A stretch of DNA of 64,000 nt from Bacteroidaceae bacterium (GCA_045643405.1 JAZUKS010000084.1:1299-65298); one strand, 5' to 3'. Numbered from the stretch's first letter, positions 19,891-62,535 are shown. The notes: generated from the letters alone by a model not told the origin. Numbers and translations: made by a program.

Positions 19891-19904
19891 AGTTATTGGT
19901 GAAG

Positions 19905-21428: not shown

Positions 21429-21430
21429 AT

Positions 21431-44992: not shown

Positions 44993-45019
44993 TGTCTGTA
45001 TGTGAAAGAGAAAAAATGT

Positions 45020-45064
45020 CCCCCTAACCCCCAACTTTTGACTGGTCAAAATGTAGGGAATAAG
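45020..45064 (-). repeat. 45-nt hairpin element, copy 1 (reads CTTATTCCCTACATTTTGACCAGTCAAAAGTTGGGGGTTAGGGGG on the minus strand)
   Basis: Matches 54681-54727 on the plus strand (CTTATTCCCTACATTTTGACCGTAGTCAAAAGTCGGGGGGTAAGGGG). The core palindrome is TTTTGAC..GTCAAAA. Confidence 0.85.
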
Positions 45065-45121
45065 AGCCATGTTGAAACAACAAATTTGTTATACAAAAGA
45101 GATGAATTATTTCACCATCAC

Positions 45122-46339
45122 TTACAACGCTTGCAGGATGTCGTCGTAGAGGTCATCCACACACTCCAATCCCACCGAGATGCGCACGGTCGTATCCAGC
45201 ACATCCATTGCTTTGCGCTGCTCCTCGCTGAAGTTGGCAAAGATGGTCGAGGCAGGATGAATGGCCAGCGTCCTGTTGTCGAACAGGTTGGTGGCTCGGT
45301 GGATGAGCTGCAAGCGGTTAATGAACCGGTGACAACTCTCCCTGCTGTCCAGGTCGATGGTGAGCATAGCACTTATGGCAGCACCGCCAGGGGGGGCATG
45401 CAGGGCAGATGCCTTGCCATACTGCTGGCAGGCAAGTTCGTAGCCAGGGCAGCTTGCCAAACCAGGATAGTTTACGCGCACAATGGCAGGATGCGCAGAC
45501 AGGCGCTGGGCAAGCTCCAAGGCATTGGCCGACTGCACCCGATAACGGGCGTTGAGCGTCTCCAAACCTAATGTCTGCATATAGGCAGCATGAGGGGTCA
45601 TGTAGGCTCCCAGATTGAAGAGCAGCTCCCACTTGATGGCACGCGTCACCTCGGGAAATGTTCCGTAGCTGATTACCAAACCACCCAAGCTGGTGGCACC
45701 GCCCGAGACGTACTTGGTGGAGCTTACCAGTTCAAAGTCAACACCTAAGTCCTTGGCAGAGAATTCTGTAAACGGAACCATGGTTGTATCGGCCACCAGG
45801 GGTACCGACGCCCGTCCGTCCTTCTCGCTATGGGCTATTTGCGAGAGGGCCTTCAAGTCGGCCACCTCGAGTTGCGGATTGGTGATAATCTCCAGAAACA
45901 CGCATGCCGTATTGGCATCAATAGCAGCATCCACCTCATCCAGGTTTGTCATATCAACCAGACGGGCTTCCACACCATAGCGAGCCAATGTCTTGGTTAT
46001 CAAGGCAAAGGTATTGCCAAAAAGGTGGCGTGAAGTGACGATGTTCTTCCCTGCACCACTGCAAGCCAGCAAGGTGTTACTGATGGCAGCCATGCCGGAG
46101 TTGAATGCCACCACATCGGTGGCTCCGGTAAGCGCTTTCACCCTGTCCTCAAAATGCGTAACGGTGGGGTTCATCGTGCGCGAGTAGTCGGGTTCGAGCA
46201 CCCTGCCCGTAAAAGCCTCCGTCATCATGTCGGCGGTAGCAAACTCATAGGCGCAGGTGTGATATACTGGCATACTCAGCGAGCCGTATGCATCATGATG
46301 TGGATAGGGGGTGTTGATGGCTATTGTTCTTTTATCCAT
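45122..46339 (-). CDS. Cys/Met-metabolism PLP enzyme (O-acetylhomoserine sulfhydrylase / methionine gamma-lyase family)
   Basis: 405 aa. Family motifs are YSRTMNPT, AFNSGMAAI, the PLP-lysine region LVSSTKYVSGG and IRISVGLE near the C-terminus. Confidence 0.8.
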   Translation of the reverse strand: MDKRTIAINTPYPHHDAYGSLSMPVYHTCAYEFATADMMTEAFTGRVLEPDYSRTMNPTVTHFEDRVKALTGATDVVAFNSGMAAISNTLLACSGAGKNIVTSRHLFGNTFALITKTLARYGVEARLVDMTNLDEVDAAIDANTACVFLEIITNPQLEVADLKALSQIAHSEKDGRASVPLVADTTMVPFTEFSAKDLGVDFELVSSTKYVSGGATSLGGLVISYGTFPEVTRAIKWELLFNLGAYMTPHAAYMQTLGLETLNARYRVQSANALELAQRLSAHPAIVRVNYPGLASCPGYELACQQYGKASALHAPPGGAAISAMLTIDLDSRESCHRFINRLQLIHRATNLFDNRTLAIHPASTIFANFSEEQRKAMDVLDTTVRISVGLECVDDLYDDILQAL

Positions 46340-46341
46340 AA

Positions 46342-46989
46342 CTAAATATAATATTCGATGACATCAATCAAGCCAGCCTTGATAGCCACGCGAGTTGCCT
46401 CGTAGCTGGTGTTGACGTGTAATTTGCGAAATATGCTACGCTTGTGTGCCGTAACGGTGTGTACACTCAGGAAACGTTCTGAGGCGATCTCCTTCACCTT
46501 CTTCCCCAATGCCGTCTGGCGGAGAATCTCAATCTCAGTAGGCGTAAGCACATCGACCGGAGAATGAGAGACGCTGGAAGTGGGCGAAAGCAAGAGGTTC
46601 ATGATGAACTGGCAGAGATGTCGCTCGCCGTTGAGCAATGAGGTAAGGGCCGAGACAAGTTCTCTCCTGCGGTTTGACTTCAAAGCCATGCCAAAGACAG
46701 GAAACGAACTGAGCCTGCGAGCCATTGCTTCGGAGATCTCATCCGAAAGAATCAGCCAATGCGAATGAGGGTATTTGACTGACAAATCTACCAATGCCTC
46801 TGAATCAGAGAAACCTGATTCCACATAATCAATAACCACATAAGCATCGGGGTTACGTTCAAGTTCATCCAGGAATTGCGTCTTCGTAACGGCACGAATA
46901 AGGTTGATGTCACCATCTATCTCGTGCAGCAATGCCTCAGTACCGATGCGGGTCAAATCCTGTTTGTCAAATATAATGATATTTTTCAT
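46342..46989 (-). CDS. LuxR/NarL(FixJ)-type transcriptional regulator with a receiver-like N-domain
   Basis: 215 aa. The C-terminal HTH is LTPTEIEILRQTALGKKVKEIASERFLSVHTVTAHKRSIFRKL. The receiver-like domain has IIIFDKQD (DK instead of DD) and VVIDY. No histidine kinase is present in the window. Confidence 0.8.
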   Translation of the reverse strand: MKNIIIFDKQDLTRIGTEALLHEIDGDINLIRAVTKTQFLDELERNPDAYVVIDYVESGFSDSEALVDLSVKYPHSHWLILSDEISEAMARRLSSFPVFGMALKSNRRRELVSALTSLLNGERHLCQFIMNLLLSPTSSVSHSPVDVLTPTEIEILRQTALGKKVKEIASERFLSVHTVTAHKRSIFRKLHVNTSYEATRVAIKAGLIDVIEYYI

Positions 46990-46995: not shown

Positions 46996-47046
46996 TTGTA
47001 ACTTTGCCTACGAATGCTTTATTGCTTTCGCTTTGCAAAGTTACAA
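46996..47046. promoter_or_regulatory. 12-bp inverted repeat TTGTAACTTTGC ... GCAAAGTTACAA, each arm containing a TAacTTTG box
   Basis: The arms lie at 46996-47007 and 47035-47046. The minus-strand box (plus strand CAAAGTTA, 47036-47043) is 47 nt upstream of the regulator ATG at 46989. Confidence 0.4.
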
Positions 47047-47130: not shown

Positions 47131-48393
47131 TTACGCAGCTTTTTCCGTTTCGGCAATGTCATGGTTCACCATAGCACACACGCACGAATCCGACCACACA
47201 TTCTCTGCCGTTTCAACCATGTCGATGATTGTGTAAATAGGCAGAATGATGCCCATGATGGCAATGGGAGCACCGATGCCCGTCATCAGCGAAAGAGTGA
47301 GGAAATAGCACCCCATGGGAACACCTGCATTACCGACAGCCGAGAATACCGAAAGCACAACCCACAACAGGAAGAACGGTATGAGAGCCACGAAACTGCT
47401 CCCTTCGGGAATCAAGCCACCATTCTGCATCACGAAGAGCGAGGTGACGAGGATAAAGGCTGCGCAACCATTCATGTTGATGGTGGTACAGATAGGCAAC
47501 ACAAAGCGTGCCACGCGAGGAGAGGCTTTCAGCCGTTGCTCGGCCGACGAGAGGGTAACGGGCAGGGTGGCTGCCGACGACTTGGTGAAGAGTGCCATCA
47601 GCACGGCAGGAGTCATGGCGCGGAAAGTCTTCAAGGGATTGATTCTGCGAGCCAGCAGGAACAAGGGCAGCACCACAAAGAACTGTACAGCATTGCCTGC
47701 CAGCACCACTGCCACATACTTGCCGATAGAGGCTACTGCCACGCCTGCACTAACCTGGGCAGACAACTGGATGGCAAAGGCCACAATACCGAGAGGAAGG
47801 GTATAGACAAGGCCGCGAATCAAGACGAAAAGCAAGTCCTGCAAAGCAAGGAAGCCTTTTACGAGGATTTCCTTTCGCTCATTGTTGGCCATCTTAGTCA
47901 ACCCGAAACCTATGGCAAAGCTAAGCAACAATATGCTGAGCACATTGCCTTCAAGGAAGGGGCGCACAATGTTGTTGGGCACTACTGAGAGGAAGTGCTC
48001 CTTGTACGAGAGTTCCTCCAAACCGTCCGATCCGGCAGCAAGCGAGGCATCCTGAATGAGTTCTGCAGGTAGGCTGTCAGGAGCTATCACCCAGTAGAGC
48101 GCCAACCCCACAAGTGCTGCCATGAAGGTGGTGAGCAGGGTGTACATTATGGTGCGGAGGAAGATGCGACCGGTGTCTTTCTGCTTACCGAAAGTGGCTA
48201 ATGTGGTGATTACTGCCAATGCTATGGTGGGCACGGCCAGCAACTGGAAGAGGCGGGTATAAACCGAGGCAACGAAGTCGGCTGTGGAGTTGACCCAATC
48301 CACTTGCAGGGTGCCTATGGCAGTACCCACAACGAGGGCTAATATCCAAAGCAGCATTTGCTTGGTTTGGGGTGATAGTTTCTGTAGAGCCAT
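47131..48393 (-). CDS. Dicarboxylate/amino acid:cation symporter (DAACS family)
   Basis: 420 aa and polytopic. DAACS-type segments include FQLLAVPTIALAVITTL, SSAATLPV and NMNGCAAF. The substrate cannot be told from sequence. Confidence 0.8.
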   Translation of the reverse strand: MALQKLSPQTKQMLLWILALVVGTAIGTLQVDWVNSTADFVASVYTRLFQLLAVPTIALAVITTLATFGKQKDTGRIFLRTIMYTLLTTFMAALVGLALYWVIAPDSLPAELIQDASLAAGSDGLEELSYKEHFLSVVPNNIVRPFLEGNVLSILLLSFAIGFGLTKMANNERKEILVKGFLALQDLLFVLIRGLVYTLPLGIVAFAIQLSAQVSAGVAVASIGKYVAVVLAGNAVQFFVVLPLFLLARRINPLKTFRAMTPAVLMALFTKSSAATLPVTLSSAEQRLKASPRVARFVLPICTTINMNGCAAFILVTSLFVMQNGGLIPEGSSFVALIPFFLLWVVLSVFSAVGNAGVPMGCYFLTLSLMTGIGAPIAIMGIILPIYTIIDMVETAENVWSDSCVCAMVNHDIAETEKAA

Positions 48394-48427: not shown

Positions 48428-49480
48428 CTATTTATGAGTTTGGCGCCAGGTGTGCACGTAGTCAGCAATGATGCGCACGCGTTCTGGTTCGATATCGTTG
48501 GGCAGAGAGTCGTCGCCACCTAAGATGAAGTTGGCTGGCGCATTCTTCAGTATCTCGTCAATCTCTGCCTTTGCCTCCTCGATGGTACCCTTGTAGATAG
48601 CACCGTTCTTGCTGTTGAGCACACCACCCAGAACGGGACGGCCGAAGAGCTTGCTGATTTCCTTGAGCGAGAGGCCCTTGTCCTGCCAGTTGTGAACGGG
48701 AGGGTTGATAACCGAGCCGGGATAGTCGAGATAGTCGTTGAGCGTCTCGGGAGTGAAGTGGCCACCACTCTCGCAGATGTGCAGTATGTTGAAGGGTGCC
48801 ACCTCATTGGCAGCATCGGCCAACTGACGGTCGTAAGGCTTGAGTACTGTCTGGAACACCTTTCCGCCAAACTCCTCCAGGTCGTCGCCCTGACTTGAGA
48901 TGTAGAAACCATCGGCACCTGCCTTACGAGCTTCGCGGATGTAATACACCAGCTGTTCGGTAACCATCTTCAAAGCTGGCTCAATGGCCTTGGGATCCTT
49001 ACGGATGATTTCAACCATACGCTTGCGACCTTCGCGGTCAGAAGAGAAGGAAGAGCCGGTAGCTTGAATGAGCACGCGCAAGGGCGAGAACACGGTGGGA
49101 ATGATGAGAGCTTCCTTGCCCAGCTCCTGCTTCAGCTGACGAACCACGTTCAGCTGCTCGTCCCATACAGAGTGATCCCATGCCTTCACGTTCTTCCAGT
49201 CAGAGGGTGAGTTGACCTGCTGGATGACGGGGAAGTACTCGTACTTCACATTAACAAAATCCACGTGTGTCTGCTTGTACCAATCTATGTGGCTCTGCAC
49301 GGCCTTGTAACCGCTCTTCGCATCGAAATGGATATTGAAGAACACAGGCACGTAATCGTTAGCACGGCTCTGGTCGAGGGTTTGGAGCAATAACTCACGC
49401 TTGTTGAAATCACTATAGGTCTGTGCTGAAGTGTTCAGCGAAAATGCCAAGGCCAAGGCCCAAAATACGTTCTTTTTCAT
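48428..49480 (-). CDS. URO-D (uroporphyrinogen decarboxylase / MtaA-like) family protein with a predicted signal peptide
   Basis: 350 aa. The N-terminus MKKNVFWALALAFSLNTSAQ looks like a Sec signal. URO-D-like blocks are DYVPVFF, AGADGFYISSQGDD and FNILHICESGG. GGDDSLP sits where MtaA-type enzymes have a G-C-G zinc ligand. Confidence 0.55.
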   Translation of the reverse strand: MKKNVFWALALAFSLNTSAQTYSDFNKRELLLQTLDQSRANDYVPVFFNIHFDAKSGYKAVQSHIDWYKQTHVDFVNVKYEYFPVIQQVNSPSDWKNVKAWDHSVWDEQLNVVRQLKQELGKEALIIPTVFSPLRVLIQATGSSFSSDREGRKRMVEIIRKDPKAIEPALKMVTEQLVYYIREARKAGADGFYISSQGDDLEEFGGKVFQTVLKPYDRQLADAANEVAPFNILHICESGGHFTPETLNDYLDYPGSVINPPVHNWQDKGLSLKEISKLFGRPVLGGVLNSKNGAIYKGTIEEAKAEIDEILKNAPANFILGGDDSLPNDIEPERVRIIADYVHTWRQTHK

Positions 49481-49605
49481 CTTTGCTTTCTTTTTAGTTT
49501 ATTTTCTTTTTACCTTATTTCAACATCTCGCCTGGCTGGCATGAACTATGGCTTACGTTATTTATGAGAGGCCAACCTTGCGAGGTGTTGTGTTATTTTT
49601 TCTGC

Positions 49606-49705
49606 TGCAAAGGTACGGCGAAATCGGCACCTGCACAATCGCAACACAGTAGTATTCGTCATACCAAGAAACAATAAACCGCATACCAAACTTTTGGTAC
49701 ACGGC
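49606..49705 (-). promoter_or_regulatory. Promoter/operator module A (upstream of the URO-D-like gene)
   Basis: The -7 box is TACCTTTG (plus CAAAGGTA, 49608-49615). The 7-2-7 palindrome TACCAAA-CT-TTTGGTA is at 49684-49699. About 85% identical to modules B and C. Confidence 0.6.
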
Positions 49706-49729
49706 TTATTCCTATAACAGATAACTTCC

Positions 49730-51367
49730 TTACTGCCAACCCTTCTGCTCGTAGGTTGAGGTGCCTGTCTCGCCATCGTAACCCCAGTTCTGCCTGAGTG
49801 CAGGGTTGAGGGCTATCTGATCGGTGGGTATGGGCAGGAAGTAATGCTTGAACGAGATGTTCTTGTACTTCAAGGCTCCATACTCATCATCACGGTTCAC
49901 ACGCTCCTTGATGGTCTTGACCAGTATGTGCCAGCGCTTGAGGTCGAACCAGCGAGTACCCTCAAGCAAGAACTCGCGATAGCGCTCCTGCTGCAAGGCA
50001 GCACGAAACTGCTCCTTGGTAAGCCCTGACAGATCTATGCTGGTGCCATCGGTGGGAGTGTTGTACCTATGCTCCCAGGGATTGTAGTAGGCACGACGGC
50101 GCACCTCGTTGATGGCATTATACGCCTGGTTGGTAGGGCCGTTCAGCTCATTCTCTGCCTCTGCCTTGACCAGCAGCACCTCAGCATAGCGAAGCACCGA
50201 ACTGCTGGTGTTCTGACCCGACTCGTAGGCATTGGCGAAATTAGCCATGTAGAGTGTGTCAATATACTTGCGGAAGCGCACACGCTCAAACTGGAAGTCC
50301 TCCTGCGTATAGGGATTCCACAGATGCTCTACCACACTGGCATCGCGACGCTGGTCGGTCACGTCGAAGGTGTTGCGCACAGAGTTGTCAACGGCAGTAA
50401 TCACAGGATAGTTATTGGCACCATTGGCAAAGCCGGTGGAGAATACGCAATGGCCGGTAACGTTACGGTTCACGCCAAACAGGTGCTCTGCCGTGAAGAG
50501 CAGTTCCGAGTTGTCCTTCTTGTCGAGTGCCCAGTTGTCGCAGAACTTCTCGTTGAGCTTGTGGCGACCTGTTGAGATGAGCTTGTCGGCAGCATCCACG
50601 GCCTTCTGGTAGAGCGCATCCTTGTTGGCCAGCGAGTATTCGGTGTCTGCCTGCGCCCACCACAGGTAAACCTTTGAGAGCAAGCCCGTGGCAGCATCGC
50701 CCGACACTACGCTCGACAGGGTAGAGAAGCCTACCGGTATCTGCTCTGCCTCGATGAGGTCGGCCACAATCTGCTCGTACACCTTGTCCTGTGCGGTGCG
50801 TGGAGCACCTTCTGCCTCGCCATCGTGGAGTGCCAGGGGCACATCGCCATAGAAGCGAACGAGGTCGAAATAGAAGAGCGCACGCAGGAACTTTGCCTGG
50901 CGAACCACATTCTGTCGCACGTTGGCATCTATGCCATGGTTGGCTTCTGCCTTGTCGATGAGTATGTTGGCACGGTTGATGCCCGTATAGTGAACCAACC
51001 AGGTAGATTCAACAAACGAGTTGGTGGGTGTGATGGCAAAGTTGGCTATCTCGGCTATGTCGGCGCTGTTGGCCTTACCACGGCGTGCATACTCGCTCTG
51101 CAGATCGTTAAAGTATATCAGTTCATTGTTATAGATGCCGTGCATCTCGCCTGCTATCTCACGGTCGGTAAGTATCTGATACACACCATTGAGGGCTACC
51201 TGCAGGTCCGACTCCGACTGGTAGAAGTCGTTGACATCGATGTCTGAGAGCGATGTCTGCTCCAGGTCGGCGCACGAGCTAAAACCGCCACCTGCTCCCA
51301 CCAGGGGAAGGGTTATCCACGCCAAAGTCTTTATATTTTGCTTGATATGATTGATTATCTTTTTCAT
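49730..51367 (-). CDS. susD: SusD/RagB family outer-membrane nutrient-binding lipoprotein
   Basis: 545 aa with lipobox GFSSC. SusD-like helical TPR-type sequence includes RALFYFDLVRFYGDVP and a C-terminal RQNWGY. It lies immediately downstream of susC. Confidence 0.9.
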   Translation of the reverse strand: MKKIINHIKQNIKTLAWITLPLVGAGGGFSSCADLEQTSLSDIDVNDFYQSESDLQVALNGVYQILTDREIAGEMHGIYNNELIYFNDLQSEYARRGKANSADIAEIANFAITPTNSFVESTWLVHYTGINRANILIDKAEANHGIDANVRQNVVRQAKFLRALFYFDLVRFYGDVPLALHDGEAEGAPRTAQDKVYEQIVADLIEAEQIPVGFSTLSSVVSGDAATGLLSKVYLWWAQADTEYSLANKDALYQKAVDAADKLISTGRHKLNEKFCDNWALDKKDNSELLFTAEHLFGVNRNVTGHCVFSTGFANGANNYPVITAVDNSVRNTFDVTDQRRDASVVEHLWNPYTQEDFQFERVRFRKYIDTLYMANFANAYESGQNTSSSVLRYAEVLLVKAEAENELNGPTNQAYNAINEVRRRAYYNPWEHRYNTPTDGTSIDLSGLTKEQFRAALQQERYREFLLEGTRWFDLKRWHILVKTIKERVNRDDEYGALKYKNISFKHYFLPIPTDQIALNPALRQNWGYDGETGTSTYEQKGWQ

Positions 51368-51421
51368 AAGGCTTTTCTTTTTTTTGTTTGTTTGAGGGGC
51401 TTCGTCAATTTAGTTGTTGTT

Positions 51422-54400
51422 TTAAAGTGTTACCTGAACACCCACCTGTACGGTCTTTGCGGTGGGATAGGTAGCCATGTCGATGCCCTGGAAGAGTGAG
51501 CTCTGCTCATCCTGTCCGCTGCGTGCTGCCTCTGGGTCATAGCCACTATACTTGGTGATGGTGAAGAAGTTCTGCAGCGAGAGGTACAATCTCAGCTTCG
51601 CATCCTTGGTAATCTTCTTGAGGGGGAAGGTGTAACCCAACTGTATGTTCTTGAAGCGCAGGTAACTGCCATTCTCCACAAAGCGGTCGTCAGAGACGAT
51701 GGTGATGTCGTTGCTGGCCTTCTGAATCACGTTGCTGGGGTTGGTGGCTGTCCAGCGGTCGGCCACAGATGCCAGACAGTTGTAATAGCCCGTGAACTTG
51801 GTCATTCTTACAGCCAGCGCGTTGTACACCTTGTTGCCTGCTGTACCTGCCAATGCCAGGAAGAAGTCGAAGTTCTTGTATTTGAGCGAGGTGTTCAAAC
51901 CGAAGCTGATCTTTGGCTGGGCATTACCTATCACGGTTTGGTCGTCCGAGTTCACCACGCCATCGCCATTCACATCCTCGTAATAGGGATTGCCGGGTTC
52001 GAGGGCAATGAACGACTGGGTGGGGAGGGCAGCCACGTCGGTGCTGCTCTGCACAATGCCCTTGAACTTATAGCCGTAGAAGGTTCCGAGGGGCTCACCT
52101 ACCTTGATGACCGAGGGGCTGATGTAGCCAAGCGTAGCGCCTCCCACGCTGGGCACAATGCTCTCTGCCAAGCCCAGGTCGGTCACCTCGTTGACATTGT
52201 GTGCTATGTTGGCATTCACGTTCCAGCGCAGGTCTTTGCGGTCGATGAGCACGCCACCCACTTCCAGTTCGATACCCTTGTTGGTAACCGATCCTACGTT
52301 TCGGAGTGCTGTCTCGTAACCCGTGATAGCCTCTACGGGCACCTGCAGGAGCAAGTCGGAGGTCTTCTTGTAATAGGCATCGAGGGTCACAGTGAGGCGG
52401 TTCTTGAAGAAGCCCGAGCTGATGCCCACGTTGTAGCTGGCCGTACGCTCCCATTTGAGGTCGGGGTTCTGCTTGTTGGTGATGTAGTAGGCGGTTTCCT
52501 TCTGGCCGTTGGTGATGAAGTTCCAGGCAGTAGGACTCACATTGGCAGCAAACTGGTAGTCGCCAATCTCCTGGTTGCCCACCACACCTGCCGACAGGCG
52601 GAGCTGCAGGAAGTCAACCTTTCTGCCCAGGTGCAGGAAGCGCTCCTTGTCAAGGTTCCACGAGGCACCCAGCGAGGGGAACACACCCCACTTGTTGTTG
52701 CTTGCAAAACGGCTCGAACCATCGGCACGGAAGGTAGCAGAGAGGTTGTAACGGCTGTCGTATGAGTAGTTAACACGTCCCAGCCACGACTGCAGGGTGT
52801 TGACCGAACCCACGCTGGTGGTGGTAGCGCGGTCGCTACCTGCACTCAGGTTGTTGTAGCCAAAGGCATCGCTGGCAAACTGTCGCACGGTGCTGGCAAA
52901 GGCGCTGCGGTCGGTACGCTGAGCGGTGTAGCCACCCAGCAGCGAGAGGTTGTGACCCTTGCCGAAGGTCTTGGTGTAGCTGGCCGTAAACTCCGTCTGC
53001 CACACGTTGGTACGCACATCGCCTACCGATGCCACGCCATTGTACTGCAAGCCAGTCGAGGTGTATGAGGGAGCATAGTTGCTCTCACGGGTGTTCGAGA
53101 GGTCGGCTCCCACGCTGGCCTTCAGCTTCAGGTCCTTGACAACCTCATACTCCGCAAAGGCATTGGCCAGGAAACGGGTGTTGCTGGTTGAGGTTTGGGT
53201 ATTCTCAAGGTCAGAGATGGCGTTGCCAGCCACCGACTTGCCTGCACGTGTATAGATGTCCTGCGAGGTGGGGTTGGGAGCGTAGTTGAAGCTGCCATCG
53301 GCATTATAGATGGGTTGCGTGGTGGGGGTGGCAAGTACCGACATCCAGTTGTTGGCCGACCACTTGCCTATCTGGCCAGAGCCACCGTTCTTGTCCACAT
53401 TGCGCAGGCCTTGCAGGTTGTTGTATGCCCCCGAGGCATTGATGCCCACCAGGAGGTTGTCGAACACGTTGCGCTCAAAGTTGATTCTGCCTGCATAGCG
53501 CTTGAGGTCGGTGCCGCGCACAATGCCCTCCTGGCTCTTGTAGCTGCCGCTGATGGAGTAGCGCGAACGCTCGTCGCCACCTGCCACGCTCAGCTGATGC
53601 TCCTGGCTGCCAGCGGTACGCAGGGCGGCATCCTGCCAGTCGTAGTTCTCGCCTGCCGTGATGGGGGCACCGGGGTTGAGCTCGTTGTAGGCTTCGGCAA
53701 ACTGGGTGGCGTTGAGCAAGTCAAGCTTCCTGGCTGCCGTGCTCCAGCCGAAAGTGCCCGAGTAGATGATGTTGTTGCGTCCGTGGAAACCCTTCTTGGT
53801 GGTGATGATGATCACACCATTGGCACCACGCGTACCGTAGATGGCGGTAGCCGATACATCCTTCAGCACCTCGATGCTCTCTATGTCGGCAGGGTTGAGG
53901 AAGGCCAGGGGGTCGAGTGCTGCATCCGAACCCGAAGCACCGCTCTTGGTGGCCGAGGCGTCGTTATACACAATGAAGCCGTCGATGACGTAGAGGGGTT
54001 CGTTGCCACCGGTGATTGAGTTACCACCACGAATGCGTATGTTGCTCGTTGCACCTGGCTGACCCGAGTTCGAGGTTACGTTGAGACCTGCCACAGCACC
54101 TTGCAGGGCACTCTCCACCGAACTGTTGTTCTGCTTCAGGAGTTCCTCGTTCACGCTCGATATGCTGGCTGTCAGCTGCTGGCGCTTCTGCACGCCATAG
54201 CCCACCACCACTACCTGTTCTATGAGCGAGCCGCCCTCCACCAGTTCTATGGTGACAGGTTCGTCCACGTCATACACCTCTATCTCCTGAGCGCGATAGC
54301 CGGTAAAGTTCACCTTGATCACAGCAGGCTGTTCCTTGACGTTGAGTGTGAACTCTCCGTCCATATTGGTCACCGTTCCGTTTTTCTTATCGTTACCCAC

Positions 54401-54535
54401 ATAAACGGTAGCACCGAGGATGCTCTCACCACTTCTGGCATCTACTACCGTTCCTTTTAGCGTCTGAGCCAAGGCTCCGGTGACTGTCACCACAGCCAGG
54501 AACAAGACGGTCAAGAATCTTCTGACATTTTTCAT
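51422..54535 (-). CDS. susC: SusC/RagA family TonB-dependent outer-membrane transporter
   Basis: 1037 aa. Has a carboxypeptidase-regulatory-like N-domain (LKGTVVDARSGESILGATVYV), a plug region (VVVGYGVQKRQQLTASIS...IRIRGGNSITGGNEPLYVIDG) and a C-terminal barrel. There is no STN/anti-sigma extension. Confidence 0.92.
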   Translation of the reverse strand: MKNVRRFLTVLFLAVVTVTGALAQTLKGTVVDARSGESILGATVYVGNDKKNGTVTNMDGEFTLNVKEQPAVIKVNFTGYRAQEIEVYDVDEPVTIELVEGGSLIEQVVVVGYGVQKRQQLTASISSVNEELLKQNNSSVESALQGAVAGLNVTSNSGQPGATSNIRIRGGNSITGGNEPLYVIDGFIVYNDASATKSGASGSDAALDPLAFLNPADIESIEVLKDVSATAIYGTRGANGVIIITTKKGFHGRNNIIYSGTFGWSTAARKLDLLNATQFAEAYNELNPGAPITAGENYDWQDAALRTAGSQEHQLSVAGGDERSRYSISGSYKSQEGIVRGTDLKRYAGRINFERNVFDNLLVGINASGAYNNLQGLRNVDKNGGSGQIGKWSANNWMSVLATPTTQPIYNADGSFNYAPNPTSQDIYTRAGKSVAGNAISDLENTQTSTSNTRFLANAFAEYEVVKDLKLKASVGADLSNTRESNYAPSYTSTGLQYNGVASVGDVRTNVWQTEFTASYTKTFGKGHNLSLLGGYTAQRTDRSAFASTVRQFASDAFGYNNLSAGSDRATTTSVGSVNTLQSWLGRVNYSYDSRYNLSATFRADGSSRFASNNKWGVFPSLGASWNLDKERFLHLGRKVDFLQLRLSAGVVGNQEIGDYQFAANVSPTAWNFITNGQKETAYYITNKQNPDLKWERTASYNVGISSGFFKNRLTVTLDAYYKKTSDLLLQVPVEAITGYETALRNVGSVTNKGIELEVGGVLIDRKDLRWNVNANIAHNVNEVTDLGLAESIVPSVGGATLGYISPSVIKVGEPLGTFYGYKFKGIVQSSTDVAALPTQSFIALEPGNPYYEDVNGDGVVNSDDQTVIGNAQPKISFGLNTSLKYKNFDFFLALAGTAGNKVYNALAVRMTKFTGYYNCLASVADRWTATNPSNVIQKASNDITIVSDDRFVENGSYLRFKNIQLGYTFPLKKITKDAKLRLYLSLQNFFTITKYSGYDPEAARSGQDEQSSLFQGIDMATYPTAKTVQVGVQVTL

Positions 54536-54680
54536 ACCTTTTTACCTTTTATTATTATTATATTACGTTTATTTACACTCTGGTTCTTTCTATCGGTTTA
54601 GTTGAACTTTTTTATAGCCTTCGGCTAGAAATCTTCAGGAGGAAATCTCTTTGAAGAAATCATTTACTGAAGTTTCCCAC

Positions 54681-54727
54681 CTTATTCCCTACATTTTGAC
54701 CGTAGTCAAAAGTCGGGGGGTAAGGGG
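54681..54727 (+). repeat. 45-nt hairpin element, copy 2 (inverted relative to copy 1)
   Basis: CTTATTCCCTACATTTTGACCGTAGTCAAAAGTCGGGGGGTAAGGGG, located between the susC start and promoter module B. Confidence 0.85.
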
Positions 54728-54740
54728 CTTACCGCTTGAT

Positions 54741-54845
54741 TTCGAGTGCAAAGGTACGGCTAAATCGGCATGCCCACAATCGCAACAGAGTAGTATTCGA
54801 CATACCAACAATGAACATACCACATACCAAAGATATGGTATATCC
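54741..54845 (-). promoter_or_regulatory. Promoter/operator module B (upstream of susC)
   Basis: The -7 box is TACCTTTG (plus CAAAGGTA, 54749-54756). The palindrome ATACCA-N6-TGGTAT is at 54824-54841. Confidence 0.6.
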
Positions 54846-54886
54846 ATCCACACAACAGCTGTAAATTAAACACTTAGCATAATCCC

Positions 54887-54918
54887 AAAAAGCCCCAGCA
54901 TCGGTGTGATGCTGAGGC
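54887..54918 (-). terminator. Rho-independent terminator after the 32-aa ORF
   Basis: On the minus strand: GCCTCAGCATC-acacc-GATGCTGGGGC followed by TTTTT. Confidence 0.7.
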
Positions 54919-54941
54919 TTGATGTGATGGCTTCAGGGGAA

Positions 54942-55040
54942 TTAGCCAATGCTAAAGCCAAGTGCCGAGAGGAGGGCGGTGAGCGTGGTGAGTACAATGT
55001 TGATGATCACGCTCCACTTGTTTTTCTTTTCAGTTGTCAT
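54942..55040 (-). CDS. 32-aa single-TM micro-protein (resembles the Bacteroidales 'smalltalk' small-protein family)
   Basis: Absent from the ORF track (too short). ATG at 55038-55040 and TAA at 54942-54944. Sequence is MTTEKKNKWSVIINIVLTTLTALLSALGFSIG. It is followed by a terminator and preceded by a 2-TM protein gene. Confidence 0.5.
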   Translation of the reverse strand: MTTEKKNKWSVIINIVLTTLTALLSALGFSIG

Positions 55041-55095
55041 AGTCCATTGATTTTTAATTTTTAAGGTTTGGTAAACCTTGAAGTGAAATATTCGT

Positions 55096-55344
55096 TCATT
55101 TGCATCTACTCCCCTCGCCCTCTACGGGAGAGCGGCCAGAGGGAGAGGGTCTGCCATTAATCTTGTGGTTGATGTAACTGTCAATGCCAAAGATGCTGCC
55201 GCAGTAGATGAGTATCTGGGCGAAGATGTAGAGCACGCTATCGTGAATCTCCCCAGGGGGAGGCATCAGCAACGCCACGAAGGCGAGGATGATGCCGAAG
55301 ACCAGAAGCACGATGGCTGTCCATTCCTTGAGTTTCATTTTCAT
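55096..55344 (-). CDS. Small 2-TM membrane protein (resembles Bacteroidales holin-like family proteins)
   Basis: 82 aa. The sequence is MKLKEWTAIVLLVFGIILAFVALLMPPPGEIHDSVLYIFAQILIYCGSIFGI. The family resemblance is from memory. Confidence 0.5.
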   Translation of the reverse strand: MKMKLKEWTAIVLLVFGIILAFVALLMPPPGEIHDSVLYIFAQILIYCGSIFGIDSYINHKINGRPSPSGRSPVEGEGSRCK

Positions 55345-55427
55345 AGGCGAGAGAAGAATTTTACGCTATACTTTTGGATCATCATCCATCCATAGTGCTG
55401 CGCGAGAGCAAGACGTACAAGCGCCTG

Positions 55428-55682
55428 ATGCCCCTGCTGCTTGGCGTACCCGAGTTCAAGAATATCGTGCTGCGCACAGGCAAGACCGCAGAGCAATCGC
55501 GAGGTGACATCCTAGTAGGTAAGGCCTCACACCAGCCTTCCTCAGTAAGGGGGGAGTCATGGGAACTGAACGATGCCCGAACCACCTTCAACCTGCTATA
55601 CCAACTCATCGCCGAAGCCATCGACCATGGCGAAGACGTCAGCATGGAAGTGCTAAGCGCGAAGGAGTGGACGTATAGGTAA
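55428..55682 (+). CDS. Orphan ORF, unknown function (possibly a gene remnant)
   Basis: The track ORF 55374..55682 starts at a TTG that lies inside a TACTTTTG box (55369-55376). The first in-frame ATG is at 55428. The composition looks coding, but I recognise no family. Confidence 0.3.
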   Translation: MPLLLGVPEFKNIVLRTGKTAEQSRGDILVGKASHQPSSVRGESWELNDARTTFNLLYQLIAEAIDHGEDVSMEVLSAKEWTYR

Positions 55683-55736
55683 AATTATTTTTTACACTTT
55701 TTGGACGAAAACAAGATGTTTTTAGTAAACTTTTTA

Positions 55737-55744
55737 TATCTTTG
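55737..55744 (+). promoter_or_regulatory. Candidate -7 box TAtcTTTG for the GH3 gene
   Basis: TATCTTTG followed by CA, 32 nt upstream of the ATG at 55776. Confidence 0.5.
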
Positions 55745-55775
55745 CACGTAATTACTAACGAAATACTGAAATATT

Positions 55776-58052
55776 ATGAAAAAAACTATCATGGCCCTAT
55801 CATTACTTGCCAGTTCGGCTGCCGTGGCACAAGCACCACAGCTCACGAAGAACAACATTGACCAGGTTCTCAAGGCAATGACCCTGGAAGAGAAAGCCAC
55901 CCTGCTTGTAGGTGGCGAATACGATTTCTGGTCAACCACCGCTATCGCTGGAAACTCATCGCGCACCGTGCCAGGTGCAGCTGGTTCGAGCGTTGCCATA
56001 GAACGCCTCGGCATACCCGAGACGGTGCTCACCGACGGCCCTGCCGGCGTGCGTATCGACGCACATCGTGCAGGTACCGAAAAGACCTACTTCGCCACAG
56101 GATTCCCTGTTGGCACTTGTCTGGCTTCGACATGGAACACGGAGCTTGTGAATCAGGTGGGCAAGGCCATCGGCAACGAGACAAAAGAATACAACTGCGA
56201 CGTGGTACTCGGTCCTGGTGTAAACATACATCGCAACCCTCTCTGCGGACGAAACTTTGAATACTATAGCGAAGACCCATTGCTCACGGGAAAGATTGCC
56301 GCTGCCTACATCAAAGGCGTGCAGAGCGAAGGAGCTGGCGTAAGCATCAAGCACTATGCCGTCAACTCGCAGGAGACGAACCGCATGGGTGTGGACGAAA
56401 TCGTGTCGCCCCGTGCTGCCCGTGAGATCTATCTGCGCGGTTTTGAGATTGCCGTGCGTGAGAGCGACCCATGGACGGTGATGTCGGCTTACAACAAGGT
56501 GAACGGCACCTTTGCACAGGGCAGTCACGACCTGCTCACTAAGATTCTACGCGACGACTGGGGATTCAAGGGCATCGTGATGACCGACTGGTGTGGCAAG
56601 CGCGAGAGCCAGGGCCTCTTCACCGTGAACTCGATCAAGGCAGGCAACGACCTCATGGAACCCGGAAGCCCAGAACAGATTGCCGACATCGTGGAGGGCG
56701 TGAAATCGGGCAAACTCAGCATGGAGGATGTTGACAAGTGCGTACGCCGCATGTTGCAGTACATTGTGCGCACCCCACACTTCAACAAGTTCCAACCCAC
56801 CAACTCGCCCGACCTCAAGGCACACGCAGCCATCACGCGTGACGTAGCCGCCGAGGGCATGGTGCTCCTGAAGAACAACGGTGTGCTGCCCATCGACGTC
56901 AACCTGCGCATCCGTCGCCGTGTGGCACTCTATGGAACGGGTTCCTACAACTTCCTCTCAGGTGGTGTAGGTTCGGGTTGTGTGCATACGCCATACATCG
57001 TTGACCTGGTTGAGGGACTCAAGAACATTGGCATTGAAACCACCCCCGACCTTACCGAGATCTACAAGAAATACATTGACTACGCAAAGCTCAAGTTCGA
57101 AGCCGACCGCCATCCTGCACGTTGGTTCGAAGCCCCCAACATGGGTGACCAGAAGATGCCCGAGATAGAAATCACACCCCTGCACATCTCACGTCAGGTT
57201 CAGCAGTCGGAGATGGCCATCATCACCATCTCACGTCAGGCAGGCGAAGGCATCGACCGCAACATCGAAGGCGAATTCAACCTCACGGCACTCGAGAAGA
57301 AGATGATAAAAGATGTGACAGATGCCTACCACAAAGAGGGCAAGCCAGTCATCGTGGTCATCAACTCGGGTTCGGTTATCGAGACAGCCAGCTGGCGTGA
57401 CCTTCCAGATGCCATCCTCATTGCCTGGCAACCTGGCGAAGAAGGCGGCAACAGCGTAGTTGACATCCTTACGGGTAAGGTTTGTCCCTCGGGACGCCTC
57501 ACCATGACATGGCCCATAGCTGCCACCGACCATCCCTCAACCAAGAACTTTGCACACGAGGACGTGGCTCGTCACGAAGAGGGCATCTGGGTTGGCTATC
57601 GCTACTTCGACACGAACAACAAGAATGTGGCATACCCCTTCGGCTACGGACTTTCGTACACCACGTTCGACTTCTCTAACCCAACCGTGAAGAAGTCAGG
57701 CAAGAACATCGTGCTCAGCGTCACCATCAAGAACACAGGCAATGTGGCAGGCAAGGAAGTGGCACAGGTGTATGTGACGGCTCCTAAGGGTGGCCTTGAA
57801 AAGCCTGCAAAGGAACTCAAGGGATTTGCCAAGACACGCACCCTGAACCCTGGCGAGAGCGAGACGCTGAAGATCAGCATTCCTCAGCGCGACCTGGCTT
57901 CGTTTGACGAGGCAAACAGCCAGTGGCTGGCTGATGCCGGTACCTACAACTTCCAGGTGGGTGCTGACGTATCGACCATCAAGGGTACTGCCAGCATCAA
58001 GCTGCCACGCTATACCGAGAAGACCAGCAACGCACTCGCTATTAAGAAATAG
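55776..58052 (+). CDS. Glycoside hydrolase family 3 (beta-glucosidase/beta-xylosidase type) with a C-terminal Fn3-like domain
   Basis: 758 aa with a signal peptide. GH3 motifs are GRNFEYYSEDP, KHYAVNSQE and the GIVMTDW nucleophile region. Confidence 0.9.
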   Translation: MKKTIMALSLLASSAAVAQAPQLTKNNIDQVLKAMTLEEKATLLVGGEYDFWSTTAIAGNSSRTVPGAAGSSVAIERLGIPETVLTDGPAGVRIDAHRAGTEKTYFATGFPVGTCLASTWNTELVNQVGKAIGNETKEYNCDVVLGPGVNIHRNPLCGRNFEYYSEDPLLTGKIAAAYIKGVQSEGAGVSIKHYAVNSQETNRMGVDEIVSPRAAREIYLRGFEIAVRESDPWTVMSAYNKVNGTFAQGSHDLLTKILRDDWGFKGIVMTDWCGKRESQGLFTVNSIKAGNDLMEPGSPEQIADIVEGVKSGKLSMEDVDKCVRRMLQYIVRTPHFNKFQPTNSPDLKAHAAITRDVAAEGMVLLKNNGVLPIDVNLRIRRRVALYGTGSYNFLSGGVGSGCVHTPYIVDLVEGLKNIGIETTPDLTEIYKKYIDYAKLKFEADRHPARWFEAPNMGDQKMPEIEITPLHISRQVQQSEMAIITISRQAGEGIDRNIEGEFNLTALEKKMIKDVTDAYHKEGKPVIVVINSGSVIETASWRDLPDAILIAWQPGEEGGNSVVDILTGKVCPSGRLTMTWPIAATDHPSTKNFAHEDVARHEEGIWVGYRYFDTNNKNVAYPFGYGLSYTTFDFSNPTVKKSGKNIVLSVTIKNTGNVAGKEVAQVYVTAPKGGLEKPAKELKGFAKTRTLNPGESETLKISIPQRDLASFDEANSQWLADAGTYNFQVGADVSTIKGTASIKLPRYTEKTSNALAIKK

Positions 58053-58075
58053 AATTACACATCTATAACATAAAG

Positions 58076-58112
58076 CGAACGGCTTCCAAATCAAGTGGAA
58101 GCCGTTCGTTTT
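58076..58112. terminator. Bidirectional terminator between the GH3 and PBP-like genes
   Basis: CGAACGGCTTCC-aaatcaagt-GGAAGCCGTTCG followed by TTTT. Confidence 0.8.
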
Positions 58113-58116
58113 GTTC

Positions 58117-59010
58117 TTATCTCTTTGCCAGCAACTGCAACTGTTGCTTGGCATCGTGGTTGCTCAGGCGCAGGAAGCCTGCCTGGTTGTTGTACTGCTG
58201 ACCGTCTGTGACAACCCACGAAAGGAAATCGTCCACATCCGAGTTGAAGTTGTTCAGCTGGAAAGCCACATTCTCAACAGGAATAGTACTGATGGCCTCG
58301 TTCTCGAGCAGCTTGATGGTGTCGTCGAGGTTGCCCGACTGCAGGATGGCTTCAAACTCCTTCTTGACGTTGAGGGGCAGAACTGCAATGTCGTGCTTCA
58401 GCTGTCGTGAGTTGAGGTCGAAGAGGTAAGCCAGGTTGTTGAAGGTTACCGACTGCTTGTCCTTCTGTATGGCGTTGAGCAGGTAGAGGTCATCACCGGC
58501 AATACGCTTACCACGAATGTCGCCCTTGCTGAAACCGAAGTGCTGGGCAAATGCCTGCGCAGCAGACGAGGTGCTGGTGCCGCTAAACACTACAAGCTTC
58601 TCGCTGAGCTTCTCCTTCTTCGACTTCTCTGAAGCATCCTGGTAGAGGTCTTCCTCCGTCTGGAAGAACAGCTTCTTGATGTCCTTCTCGCCCCATTGCT
58701 TCTGTGCCACCTCCTTGTACAAGGGGTTATCGACGGGAGTCACGGGCAGCAAGGCAAATCGTCCTACGTTGGCCACGTCCAAGCCTTCGGAAATGCCATT
58801 TATGATAGAGATGTTGGCACCTTCTGCCTTATCCACGATTACGACGTTTATCTCGGGACGCACCTGCATGTAAGCATTAGCCCAGCTCTCAACAAGCTGC
58901 TTGCTTGCCTTGGTTGCCTTTACTGTGATGGTTCCGTTACCCTTGGTGGCTGCATTTGCCAATGAGGCTACTGCCAAAAACGCTGCTGCTAATACTGTCT
59001 TGAATTTCAT
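58117..59010 (-). CDS. Secreted periplasmic-binding-protein-like protein (PstS/PBP_like_2 type)
   Basis: 297 aa with a signal peptide. ITVKATKASKQLVESWANAY and VVFSGTSTSSAAQAFAQHFG resemble the phosphate/anion-binding PBP fold. No permease or ATPase partner is adjacent. Confidence 0.5.
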   Translation of the reverse strand: MKFKTVLAAAFLAVASLANAATKGNGTITVKATKASKQLVESWANAYMQVRPEINVVIVDKAEGANISIINGISEGLDVANVGRFALLPVTPVDNPLYKEVAQKQWGEKDIKKLFFQTEEDLYQDASEKSKKEKLSEKLVVFSGTSTSSAAQAFAQHFGFSKGDIRGKRIAGDDLYLLNAIQKDKQSVTFNNLAYLFDLNSRQLKHDIAVLPLNVKKEFEAILQSGNLDDTIKLLENEAISTIPVENVAFQLNNFNSDVDDFLSWVVTDGQQYNNQAGFLRLSNHDAKQQLQLLAKR

Positions 59011-59109
59011 AATGCGTCTCCTTTCGTTTATTTTTTAATAATGGTTTATTACTATGTTGATTTTTATTGTTTTATGAGTGCAACTCTTTGTGATTTGAGT
59101 GTAACTCTT

Positions 59110-59218
59110 GATTTCGAGTGCAAAGGTACGGCAAAATCGGCACCCCCACAATCGCAACAGAGTGGTATTCCATATACCCAAAAATAGTAAACGGCATACC
59201 AAACTTTTGGTATATGGC
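59110..59218 (-). promoter_or_regulatory. Promoter/operator module C (upstream of the PBP-like gene)
   Basis: The -7 box is TACCTTTG (plus CAAAGGTA, 59121-59128). GGTAT-TCCAT-ATACC is at 59164-59178. The 7-2-7 TACCAAA-CT-TTTGGTA is at 59197-59212. Confidence 0.6.
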
Positions 59219-61631: not shown

Positions 61632-62525
61632 ATGAAAAAAACATTTCTTACCCTGACCATGGGTATGGCACTGGCAACCAGCATGGTAATGACCAGTTGC
61701 GGAGAGAAGAAAGCAGGTGCAGAACAGGCAGACGCCAAGGCTGAGCAGACCGAGGCTCCTGCAGGCAAGGCAAAGGCTCAGAAGCCTGCCGACCTGAAGG
61801 TTTACAAGAGTTCTGACTTGCAGGCTCAGATGAAGAACGAGGCTGCCAACGTTGGTTTCGACGAGAGCGTTATCTCGACCGTTGACGCCATGATGGAGAA
61901 CAACAAGGCTGTCAAGGCAGTATACTTCGACCACAAGATCAACATGATTGGTACCGCTTCATTCAAGAACTGTACCAACCTTGAGGCTGTATATTTTGAC
62001 GAGGCTATCGACGTTATCGGCGACGAGGCATTCATGGGTTGTACCTCTTTGAAGGAGGTTAAGGTAACCACCTCTACCCTCGGTTTGAACGCATTCGACG
62101 GTTGTACCTCTCTTGAGAAGGTGTTGCTCGACCAGCAGGGATGGAAGATTCGCGACAACGCGTTGGCTAACTGCCCCAACCTGAAGACCATCATCATCCC
62201 CATGACCATCGACGCCATCGAGGAGGACGCTTTCAAGGGTTCAAGTGGCATCGAGGAGTTGGCCATCCCCTACAACTTCAAGGACCGCATGTACACCTTC
62301 TGCTCAGCATCAAAGAACATCAAGAAGATCTACATCCTGACTCCCGCACTCTATCAGTTCCCCACAACTGCAGCTGCCAAGGCATTCAACAAGGTTCAGT
62401 GTGAGGCATACGTACCCGATGCATTGCTCAAGGACTTCCAGGGCGACGAGACATGGAAGGACTTTGCATCCATCAAGCCTCTTAGCGAGTCGGGCTACTT
62501 CAATGCCGACAGCTCTATCAAGTAA
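61632..62525 (+). CDS. Leucine-rich-repeat lipoprotein (BspA-type LRR)
   Basis: 297 aa with lipobox VMTSC. Repeated units are IG..AF..C..L..V (IGTASFKNCTNLEAVYF, IGDEAFMGCTSLKEV, LNAFDGCTSLEKV, IRDNALANCPNLKTI, IEEDAFKGSSGIEEL). Confidence 0.8.
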   Translation: MKKTFLTLTMGMALATSMVMTSCGEKKAGAEQADAKAEQTEAPAGKAKAQKPADLKVYKSSDLQAQMKNEAANVGFDESVISTVDAMMENNKAVKAVYFDHKINMIGTASFKNCTNLEAVYFDEAIDVIGDEAFMGCTSLKEVKVTTSTLGLNAFDGCTSLEKVLLDQQGWKIRDNALANCPNLKTIIIPMTIDAIEEDAFKGSSGIEELAIPYNFKDRMYTFCSASKNIKKIYILTPALYQFPTTAAAKAFNKVQCEAYVPDALLKDFQGDETWKDFASIKPLSESGYFNADSSIK

Positions 62526-62535
62526 TATATTTAGA

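Follow-up and report, generated by a model that had tools for sequence, protein, structure and literature searches.

Canonical SusC/SusD loci are regulated by hybrid two-component systems, by SusR or by pairs of extracytoplasmic function (ECF) sigma and anti-sigma factors. To our knowledge, the regulators of non-glycan SusC/SusD loci are largely unknown, and few operators or activation geometries have been defined for the -33/-7 promoters of Bacteroidetes. Here we analyse three related promoter modules (A, B and C) in a stretch of 64,000 nt from an uncultured gut Bacteroidaceae bacterium (GCA_045643405.1 JAZUKS010000084.1:1299-65298); this whole stretch is called the window below. The modules precede a URO-D-like gene, susC and a PBP-like gene. 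Our best explanation, to which we assign a probability of roughly 0.6, is that they carry phased operators, each made of two inverted heptamers 2 bp apart (7-2-7), that would be bound by the regulator encoded at 46342-46989, and that this regulator would activate three transcription units.

Among the described systems, NarL prefers such 7-2-7 inverted heptamers, for example the engineered high-affinity site TACCCCTAAAGGGGTA, and binds them as a dimer (PMC4549865). At the Pfha promoter, three head-to-head BvgA dimers sit on inverted heptads at intervals of 22 bp, all on one side of the helix; the high-affinity consensus site lies furthest upstream, weaker sites follow downstream, and the proximal one adjoins the -35 element (PMC7250471). 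In Porphyromonas gingivalis, CdhR (PG1237), a protein with a C-terminal LuxR helix-turn-helix (HTH, residues 134-188), has been implicated in the control of hmuYR (PMC11018363). Promoters of Bacteroides consist of a -33 and a -7 element, the latter with the consensus TANNTTTGY (PMC12632263).

Repeat finding and a MAFFT alignment gave three copies of the module, all on the minus strand, whose flanks share no similarity. An initial annotation of the window had reported three segments of about 85% identity in one orientation, each 100-210 nt upstream of a minus-strand start codon, and this description holds. Over the 93 nt between the distal palindrome and the end of the -7 box the identity is 81-85% (A-C 84.9%, A-B 81.7%, B-C 80.6%), and the first T of the -7 box TACCTTTG precedes the ATG by 135 nt for the URO-D-like gene, by 221 nt for susC and by 118 nt for the PBP-like gene. 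The 24-nt core TGCCGATTTNGCCGTACCTTTGCA occurs exactly three times in the window (49606-49629, 54747-54770 and 59119-59142, all minus), with none expected from shuffled sequences. The palindrome TACCAAANNTTTGGTA is perfect, as had been noted before, in A (49684-49699) and C (59197-59212) and has one mismatch in B (54825-54840); with up to two mismatches it has five matches in the window against 0.16 expected. The Bacteroidetes -7 box was likewise seen correctly: TACCTTTGC is present in all three modules. The related peptides translated from spurious open reading frames (ORFs), on the other hand, do exist, yet they merely mirror the similarity of the DNA and add no information.

The internal anatomy had to be revised. 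We define the site unit as 18 bp, ATACC-N8-GGTAT, which corresponds to a 7-2-7 element TACCnnn-NN-nnnGGTA with one flanking base on each side, and score a site by its matches out of the 10 specified bases; positions are counted from the first T of TAnnTTTG. By this definition, every module in the window has not two but three sites, centred at -31.5 (proximal, P), -54.5 (middle, M) and -76.5 (distal, D); their coordinates are collected in Table 1. ATACC-N8-GGTAT is perfect in B (at 54824) and C (at 59196). The distal palindrome of the initial annotation is thus retained as site D, whereas its second palindrome, GGTAT-N5-ATACC (perfect at 59164-59178 in C, one mismatch each in A and B), consists of the right half of M and, after it, the left half of P; a junction of this type lies between D and M in L002, L013 and L015 (related loci are given as L numbers). 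The nearly invariant block that had been listed as a further element is real as well, but it breaks down into the right half of the third site, the -33 element and the spacer, with CTGTTGCGATTG covering the inner and right portion of site P and the -33 TTG. This TTG, 20 nt before TAnnTTTG, is made up of the final T of site P and the TG after it, so that site P ends exactly at -33. In module A, for example, D and M are separated by GCGG and M and P by GACGA, and site P is followed by TG, the 20-nt spacer and TACCTTTG. Among the five close copies of the module the half-sites are nearly constant, whereas variation is seen in the N8 cores, in the gaps and on the left side of M. A possible fourth site over the -7 box (ATGCC-N8-CGTAC) reaches 7/10 in module B only and is out of phase at 25 bp, and it was dropped.

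Table 1. Modules, predicted operator sites, promoter elements and genes of the locus (window coordinates; site scores are matches out of 10)
Feature	Coordinates	Strand	Description
Module A	49600..49705	-	Predicted promoter/operator of the URO-D-like - SDF transporter transcription unit
A site D	49683..49700	-	GTACC AAAAGTTT GGTAT, 9/10, centre -76.5
A site M	49661..49678	-	TTTAT TGTTTCTT GGTAT, 6/10, right half alone intact, centre -54.5
A site P	49638..49655	-	ATACT ACTGTGTT GCGAT, 7/10, centre -31.5
A -33 TTG	49636-49638	-	Last T of site P + TG
A -7 box	49608..49615	-	TACCTTTG (TAnnTTTG), then C; consensus from PMC12632263
Module B	54735..54845	-	Predicted promoter/operator of susC-susD; extra copy, not in the closest species (L001)
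B site D	54824..54841	-	ATACC ATATCTTT GGTAT, 10/10
B site M	54802..54819	-	TATGT TCATTGTT GGTAT, 5/10
B site P	54779..54796	-	ATACT ACTCTGTT GCGAT, 7/10, abuts -33 TTG
B -7 box	54749..54756	-	TACCTTTG
Module C	59105..59218	-	Predicted promoter/operator of the PBP-like (PstS-like) gene
C site D	59196..59213	-	ATACC AAAAGTTT GGTAT, 10/10
C site M	59174..59191	-	TTTAC TATTTTTG GGTAT, 7/10
C site P	59151..59168	-	ATACC ACTCTGTT GCGAT, 8/10; with right half of M makes GGTAT-N5-ATACC
C -7 box	59121..59128	-	TACCTTTG
PBP-like (PstS-like) gene	58117..59010	-	Secreted 297-aa protein; predicted target of module C
susC	51422-54535	-	PF13715, PF07715, PF00593; predicted target of module B
susD	49730-51367	-	PF07980, PF14322; predicted target of module B
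URO-D-like gene	48428-49480	-	URO-D family with signal peptide; predicted target of module A
SDF-family amino-acid transporter	47131-48393	-	Predicted target of module A
Regulator	46342-46989	-	215 aa, GerE HTH, candidate trans factor
Cys/Met gamma-family PLP enzyme	45122-46339	-	2 nt between the regulator stop codon and this gene
PatB-type C-S lyase	43664-45070	-	Beyond the Cys/Met PLP enzyme gene

To see how far this arrangement is kept, we took 20 promoters of 10 loci, all of which contain a TAnnTTTG box, and aligned them with the first T of this box as anchor. Sites scoring at least 7/10 were found at fixed centres, namely -31.5 for P, -54.5 or -53.5 for M and -76.5 or -77.5 for D. As a control, we considered all 255 TAnnTTTG boxes on both strands of 13 sequences: a site of at least 7/10 is present at -31.5 in 19 cases, at -54.5 in eight and at -76.5 in six, and the median for other offsets is one. 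The half-sites and their distance to the -7 box are kept in about 10 loci whose surroundings are divergent and whose PBP-like proteins are 39-89% identical; in L002, L013 and L015-L020 the register persists although the identity of the PBP-like protein to that of the window is just 39-73%. In the 14 multi-site promoters, the D-M and M-P spacings are each 22-23 bp from centre to centre, and consequently the three sites lie on one face of the DNA helix.

The promoters carry one, two or three sites. Three sites are found in the window modules, in the two promoters of L001, in L002 and before the PBP-like genes of L013, L015 and L020. Two sites are found in L013_UROD, L013_REG, L016_PBP and L017_PBP, and also in L017_susD and L017_YtkA if M is read at -53.5; grouped with these is L015_UROD, where the best site is M, and D and P are weaker. 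In contrast, L016_TBDR, L016_9052, both L018 promoters, L019 and the PALP gene of L021 (at -30.5) have a single one. The best palindrome is the most upstream site in 12 of the 14 multi-site promoters, with a tie in L013_UROD and an exception in L015_UROD; apart from these two, D scores 9-10, M 5-8 and P 5-9 of 10 in the three-site modules. Single-site promoters, on the other hand, have a strong P (8-10 of 10).

This arrangement resembles that of the BvgA promoters of Bordetella pertussis (Pfha, also Pptx and Pfim3): three sites 22-23 bp apart, the best one distal, the proximal one ending at the -33 TTG. It differs in the site itself, TACCAAA-NN-TTTGGTA (7-2-7) rather than TAAGAAATTTCCTA (7-0-7), in the -33/-7 promoter of Bacteroidetes, and in having no BvgS-like kinase nearby; binding and cooperativity are here predicted from sequence. 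The site is instead close to the NarL/NarP operators of E. coli, which are also inverted heptamers 2 bp apart with outer bases TACC...GGTA, and the window regulator shares with NarL a GerE-type HTH and a receiver-like N-terminus. Unlike in the NarL/NarP system, the inner heptamer bases are A/T-rich, there is no NarX or NarQ, and the targets are genes of an uptake locus rather than of respiration.

Taken together, the module can be read as a Bacteroidetes primary-sigma promoter (-33 TTG, 20-nt spacer, -7 box TACCTTTGC) preceded by three tandem predicted operators of 18 bp. What is observed are the sites with their phasing and conservation, as well as the presence of the regulator gene nearby; from this we infer the binder, the direction of regulation and the cooperativity. 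Dimers of the regulator would nucleate on the distal site and then fill the weaker M and P sites cooperatively, and the dimer on P would contact RNA polymerase in the manner of a class II activator. Three units would be induced together, the first being the PBP-like gene, the second susC-susD and the third the URO-D-like and SDF transporter genes, possibly with readthrough into the regulator gene and the two C-S lyase genes. If transcription is assumed to start 4-7 nt after the box, the site centres correspond to about -44 to -47, -67 to -70 and -89 to -92.

Activation is not the only direction that such a site would permit. A site that abuts the -33 element could also repress, and the local regulator might thus bind the three sites as a repressor or roadblock whose release induces the locus. 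NarL does repress frdA through a 7-2-7 site (PMC4549865), and there is a second geometry in which the site is centred at -25.5 or -26.5 and overlaps the -33 element (the regulator promoter L020_REG, the S41-peptidase promoter L005_S41 and, weakly, the window at 24729-24746). We nevertheless consider repression unlikely. In 19 of the 20 aligned promoters the -31.5 position matches at least 6 of the 10 bases, and all their sites lie upstream of -33, which fits a contact with RNA polymerase and not occlusion; the distance to the -7 box is nearly invariant, and therefore activation by contact is favoured. Moreover, a strong upstream site with weaker downstream sites is what is found in BvgA-activated promoters (PMC7250471). 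As for the off-register site of the window, it is a weak palindrome on the plus strand, TGACCAAAGATTTGGTTA (6/10), centred 25.5 bp before the TATTTTTG box at 24763-24770 and upstream of a gene for a protein of 1222 aa (24834-28502), with a gene for an M60 peptidase coming next. This site may mark a fourth target with a different mode of regulation, or it may be due to chance.

Next, we asked how widespread the module is. We scanned 185,579 species genomes (one per species, including incomplete metagenome-assembled genomes (MAGs) and not including the genome of the window itself) with the pattern TTGGTATG-N(24-29)-ATACNANTNTGNTGCNATT, which matches all six module variants known at that point. 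Matches were found in the MAG of L001 (two copies) and in the Bacteroidaceae MAG Horse_feces101 (copies B and C, 92-99% identical to the window). A further match in Fontibacter (L011) lacks the rest of the module and is likely due to chance. Since the matches are bound to this locus, the module is not a high-copy element, a possibility that the initial annotation had raised. A scan of metagenome contigs with the PBP-like alignment gave one weak, irrelevant match (L012). Homologues of the regulator and the PBP-like protein led to further loci (L002/L003, L013/L014 and L015-L021).

The comparison with the closest species (L001, regulator 84% identical) suggests how the three copies arose. There, the genes for the PBP-like protein, SusC, SusD, URO-D, SDF transporter, regulator, Cys/Met enzyme and PatB are contiguous, modules precede the PBP-like and URO-D genes only, and just 53 nt separate the PBP-like gene from susC. 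In the window, these two genes are held apart by an insert of about 3.5 kb that includes module B; a plus-strand GH3 gene, which is not in L001, and small ORFs lie between modules B and C. Copies A and C each share about 89-90% identity with the two copies of L001 and hence predate the split of the species, while B is the most divergent copy (75-82% to all others). From these alignments, module B appears as a lineage-specific extra promoter for the detached susC.

One could ask whether the modules are simply a recent duplication or a small mobile or repeat element without regulatory function. Recent copying would leave near-identical copies, as is seen for the spacer TGCCGATTTnGCCG, and module B indeed has no counterpart in L001. 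However, the modules begin and end at functional landmarks, running from the palindrome to about +15; the copies in L001 show the same similarity whether orthologous or paralogous, which dates A and C before the split; the genome scan returned locus-bound copies only; and half-sites and register persist in loci that have no other similarity. We regard this explanation as extremely unlikely.

The candidate binder is the 215-aa protein encoded downstream of the SDF transporter gene. Its GerE domain is recognised by Pfam (PF00196, residues 146-202, E = 9e-15, above the cut-off), and over its full length it can be aligned with VraR, RcsB and DesR of the NarL/FixJ family; the match to the NCBIfam model of NarL itself is weak (E = 2.8e-7, far below the cut-off). 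Its prior assignment to the NarL/FixJ type is therefore sustained, with the reservation that the receiver is divergent. Eight homologues, which include Bacteroides and Dysgonomonas proteins of about 40% identity, share the recognition helix S-HT(I/V)--H(K/R)(K/R)(N/S)IF(R/S)K and a C-terminal EYYI; D8, D54 and K104 are invariant in them and S82 is mostly kept, with D54 aligned to the phospho-acceptor aspartate. As to the genomic context, 7 of the 10 PBP-like loci (window, L001, L002, L013, L015, L016 and L020) have an orthologue of the regulator at a distance of at most 10 kb, in three arrangements: downstream, divergent or separated by a receptor gene. Sites are also found at the regulator gene itself. 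In L013 it has a two-site module of its own, in L020 its box has a site at -25.5, and in L021 and L005 a perfect or near-perfect site adjoins it; upstream of the TAACTTTG box of the window regulator (47036-47043) there is no site. The conserved register and this co-location support the proposal of the initial annotation that the palindromes are probable operators of a dimeric HTH factor with 7-2-7, NarL/FixJ-type geometry.

Neither a histidine kinase (HisKA or HATPase_c) nor a hybrid two-component system nor an ECF sigma factor was found among the scanned ORFs of the window (those of at least 200 aa in 1-41000 and the main ORFs of 41000-64000), and there is no kinase next to the regulator in L001, L002, L013, L015, L016, L020 or L021. 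With no kinase found in either place, we class the regulator as an orphan, although a kinase encoded at a distance is conceivable.

Several observations weigh against the regulator as the binder or against the strength of the pattern. The missing kinase is one of them. The second acidic pocket residue of the receiver is K, N or S, and Pfam gives no Response_reg match for the window regulator at E <=0.001, although such a match is recorded for some homologues. Many of the aligned promoters are related by descent, so the counts given above overstate the number of independent cases, and the M sites in the three modules score low (5-7 of 10). In L017 and L019 there are operators, yet the 10 kb around them contain no orthologue of the regulator; a TPR-GerE protein in L018 was considered as an orthologue and found to be unrelated (44% identity over 50 aa, different recognition helix). 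Finally, regulator homologues of about 40% identity are found elsewhere in the genomes of Bacteroides and Dysgonomonas, and there is no site near the homologue in L007. The gene contexts in L005-L007 are unrelated, and we did not treat these as the same locus.

Such findings could mean that the operators are real and that another factor, either a paralogous LuxR-type protein or an unrelated dimeric one, binds them, with the local regulator controlling something else. The canonical sites of L017 and L019, at -31.5 and -53.5 without a nearby regulator orthologue, would be in line with this, as would the homologues that have the same recognition-helix motif in unrelated contexts. They also imply that the factor can act in trans, and a paralogue is possible. 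The claim of a local regulon consequently needs to be qualified: in the window it is local, but the operator is also found before PBP-like, SusCD and peptidase genes of Bacteroidales without a nearby regulator (L017 and L019). On the other hand, the regulator is in 7 of 10 PBP-like loci in three gene orders, and its gene has a site in front of it in L013 and L020 and one adjoining it in L021 and L005; in addition, a 7-2-7 site with TACC...GGTA outer bases has the geometry documented for NarL. A different binder thus seems improbable to us, and the local regulator remains our preferred candidate.

The three-operator model also leaves one conserved element unexplained, which likewise counts against it. 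In the 22-nt spacer between P and the box (49616-49637, 54757-54778 and 59129-59150), directly 5' of TAnnTTTG, there is a motif G..GAWWT.G(C)CG which recurs in L001, L013, L016, L017, L020 and L021, including distant loci. It may be an additional contact. Potentially, it could be part of the recognition sequence of a dedicated alternative (ECF-type) sigma factor, and its recurrence across distant loci would then be accounted for. However, all the promoters have the primary-sigma box TAnnTTTG(C) with TTG 20 nt upstream, no sigma or anti-sigma gene was found among the scanned ORFs of the window or in the related loci, and no STN domain was detected in SusC by Pfam, which makes a dedicated sigma factor very unlikely. 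A scan for sigma-70 promoters returned 10 against 9.4 expected, this model being uninformative for the phylum.

The conservation extends slightly downstream of the box, where the first 15 or so nucleotides of the expected transcript read CAC(T/C)C(A/G)GAAATCAAG. The palindromes fold, which raises the question of whether the module is a transcribed RNA element (a leader, a riboswitch or a small RNA); module A has a folding z-score of -5.5, and its distal site is part of a terminator-like hairpin after susD. We hold such an element to be highly unlikely: the z-scores are inconsistent (-5.5, -1.7 and -2.8 for A, B and C) with no common fold, most of the conservation is upstream of TAnnTTTG and thus of the expected start, and Rfam gave no match at the gathering threshold in the whole window and none overlapping the modules at E <=5 in 48-60 kb.

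The hairpin in question (49673..49710, minus strand) has a 17-bp stem, is followed by a T-rich run, lies directly after the susD stop codon and contains site D of module A; its orthologue in L001 keeps the pairing, with an A-to-G change that gives a G-U pair. It looks like a susD terminator that shares its DNA with the operator of module A. A second hairpin, GC-rich and followed by TTTTT (GCCTCAGCATC...GATGCTGGGGCTTTTT, 54880-54918, minus strand), lies just upstream of module B and follows small membrane-protein ORFs (54942-55040 and 55096-55344). The terminator scan did not flag it; it would insulate the susC promoter from upstream transcription.

What do these promoters control? Pfam confirms the identities of the URO-D, SusC, SusD and GerE regulator (46342-46989) genes, with the SusC-like TonB-dependent transporter and the SusD-like lipoprotein adjacent to each other. 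The gene labels of the initial annotation thus stand for the URO-D-like gene and susC. The 297-aa PBP-like protein itself has no Pfam match and owes its label to homologues: JGI calls some of them PstS-like phosphate-binding proteins, and PF12849 is present in three distant ones. Sequence searches of the PDB with the PBP-like and URO-D-like proteins gave no match.

In the window, L001, L013, L015, L020 and L021 the regulator is in an operon with the genes for the Cys/Met pyridoxal phosphate (PLP) enzyme and PatB. Across the loci, the operators are followed by genes for PstS-like and URO-D-like proteins, SusC/SusD pairs and a TonB-dependent receptor, as well as SDF and NhaC-type carriers, peptidases (M14, M28 and S51), thioredoxin-like proteins, a serine-dehydratase-like enzyme and PALP enzymes. 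This set of genes, together with the C-S lyases beside the regulator, points to the uptake and breakdown of amino acids or peptides. By its gene content, the locus probably serves outer-membrane uptake and catabolism of amino acids or peptides, in particular sulfur-containing ones. Cys/Met C-S lyases have been linked to the production of hydrogen sulfide and methanethiol in gut bacteria. A gene for a MetF-type methylenetetrahydrofolate reductase (62401-63489, plus strand), 3.2 kb from module C, fits the theme of methionine and sulfur amino acids; no operator site was seen before it.

In its layout the locus is similar to canonical SusC/SusD loci, since it combines SusC/SusD with accessory binding and enzyme genes and a locus-encoded candidate regulator. 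It differs from them in the kind of regulator, a small cytoplasmic NarL-type orphan, with no hybrid two-component system, SusR or ECF pair found in the scanned ORFs of the window. It also differs in the accessory genes: there are no glycan-degrading enzymes among the co-oriented genes and instead of glycoside hydrolases we find the PstS-like and URO-D-like proteins, the SDF amino-acid transporter and C-S lyases, joined by peptidases in related loci. By its published description, CdhR resembles the window regulator in being a LuxR-HTH protein of Bacteroidales that is implicated in the control of a TonB-dependent uptake operon (hmuYR). Unlike the window regulator, CdhR has been linked to hemin and nitric oxide stress and not to Cys/Met enzymes, and its DNA site is undefined in PMC11018363.

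More tentatively, and with somewhat less than even confidence, we suggest a Bacteroidales-wide regulon for the scavenging of sulfur amino acids or peptides, in which an orphan family of NarL-like regulators would act through BvgA-like phased dimers in the fixed -31.5 register. Its members could include PstS-like and SusCD transporters, peptidases, amino-acid carriers, C-S lyases and cysteine-synthase-like enzymes. The regulators would be recognisable by the C-terminal EYYI and the HTH motif S-HT-x2-H(K/R)(K/R), and the proximal dimer at -31.5 would be a sequence-defined class-II-type geometry for the primary sigma factor of Bacteroidetes. Literature searches found no description of a LuxR-type regulon of this kind in Bacteroides. 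The regulon and promoter class is previously undescribed and mechanistically familiar: a new regulon and not a new principle. What it offers is a model at base-pair resolution, with three phased 7-2-7 sites, the -31.5 register, a named candidate regulator and an uptake locus tied to C-S lyases. With the motif and its register, members of the regulon could be predicted for any genome of Bacteroidales, and the series of one-, two- and three-site promoters suggests graded thresholds, as described for the Bvg system.

Some further observations concern the relatives of the locus and other parts of the window. In the Horse_feces101 MAG there is an insertion of 184 nt in the 5' untranslated region of susC (L009 813-996, compared with window 54638-54678); it resembles a miniature inverted-repeat transposable element and is flanked by duplicated ATAAGGT. 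A related element with the ends GGAAGTTA...TAACTTCC lies upstream of the L001 module (L001 ~300-540). In the same MAG, susC is joined directly to the Cys/Met gene (L009 ~2992-3002, compared with window 52633 and 45406), without SusD, module A, URO-D, SDF transporter and regulator, and at this junction the identity falls from 98.7% to 90%. This is either a real deletion or recombination event of 7.2 kb or an assembly chimera.

Elsewhere in the window, a type IX secretion cluster (15873-22372, minus strand) contains PorP/SprF, an FGE-sulfatase-like PorK/GldK, GldL, GldM and GldN; within the GldL-like ORF (18779-19852) there is an 18-nt tandem repeat in six copies (19282-19545). Finally, intergenic arrays of direct repeats are found at gene ends at 9519-9614 and 34479-34626, with GTTCAGA/GTTTAGA heptamers and a 56-nt pair with CATAGT motifs.

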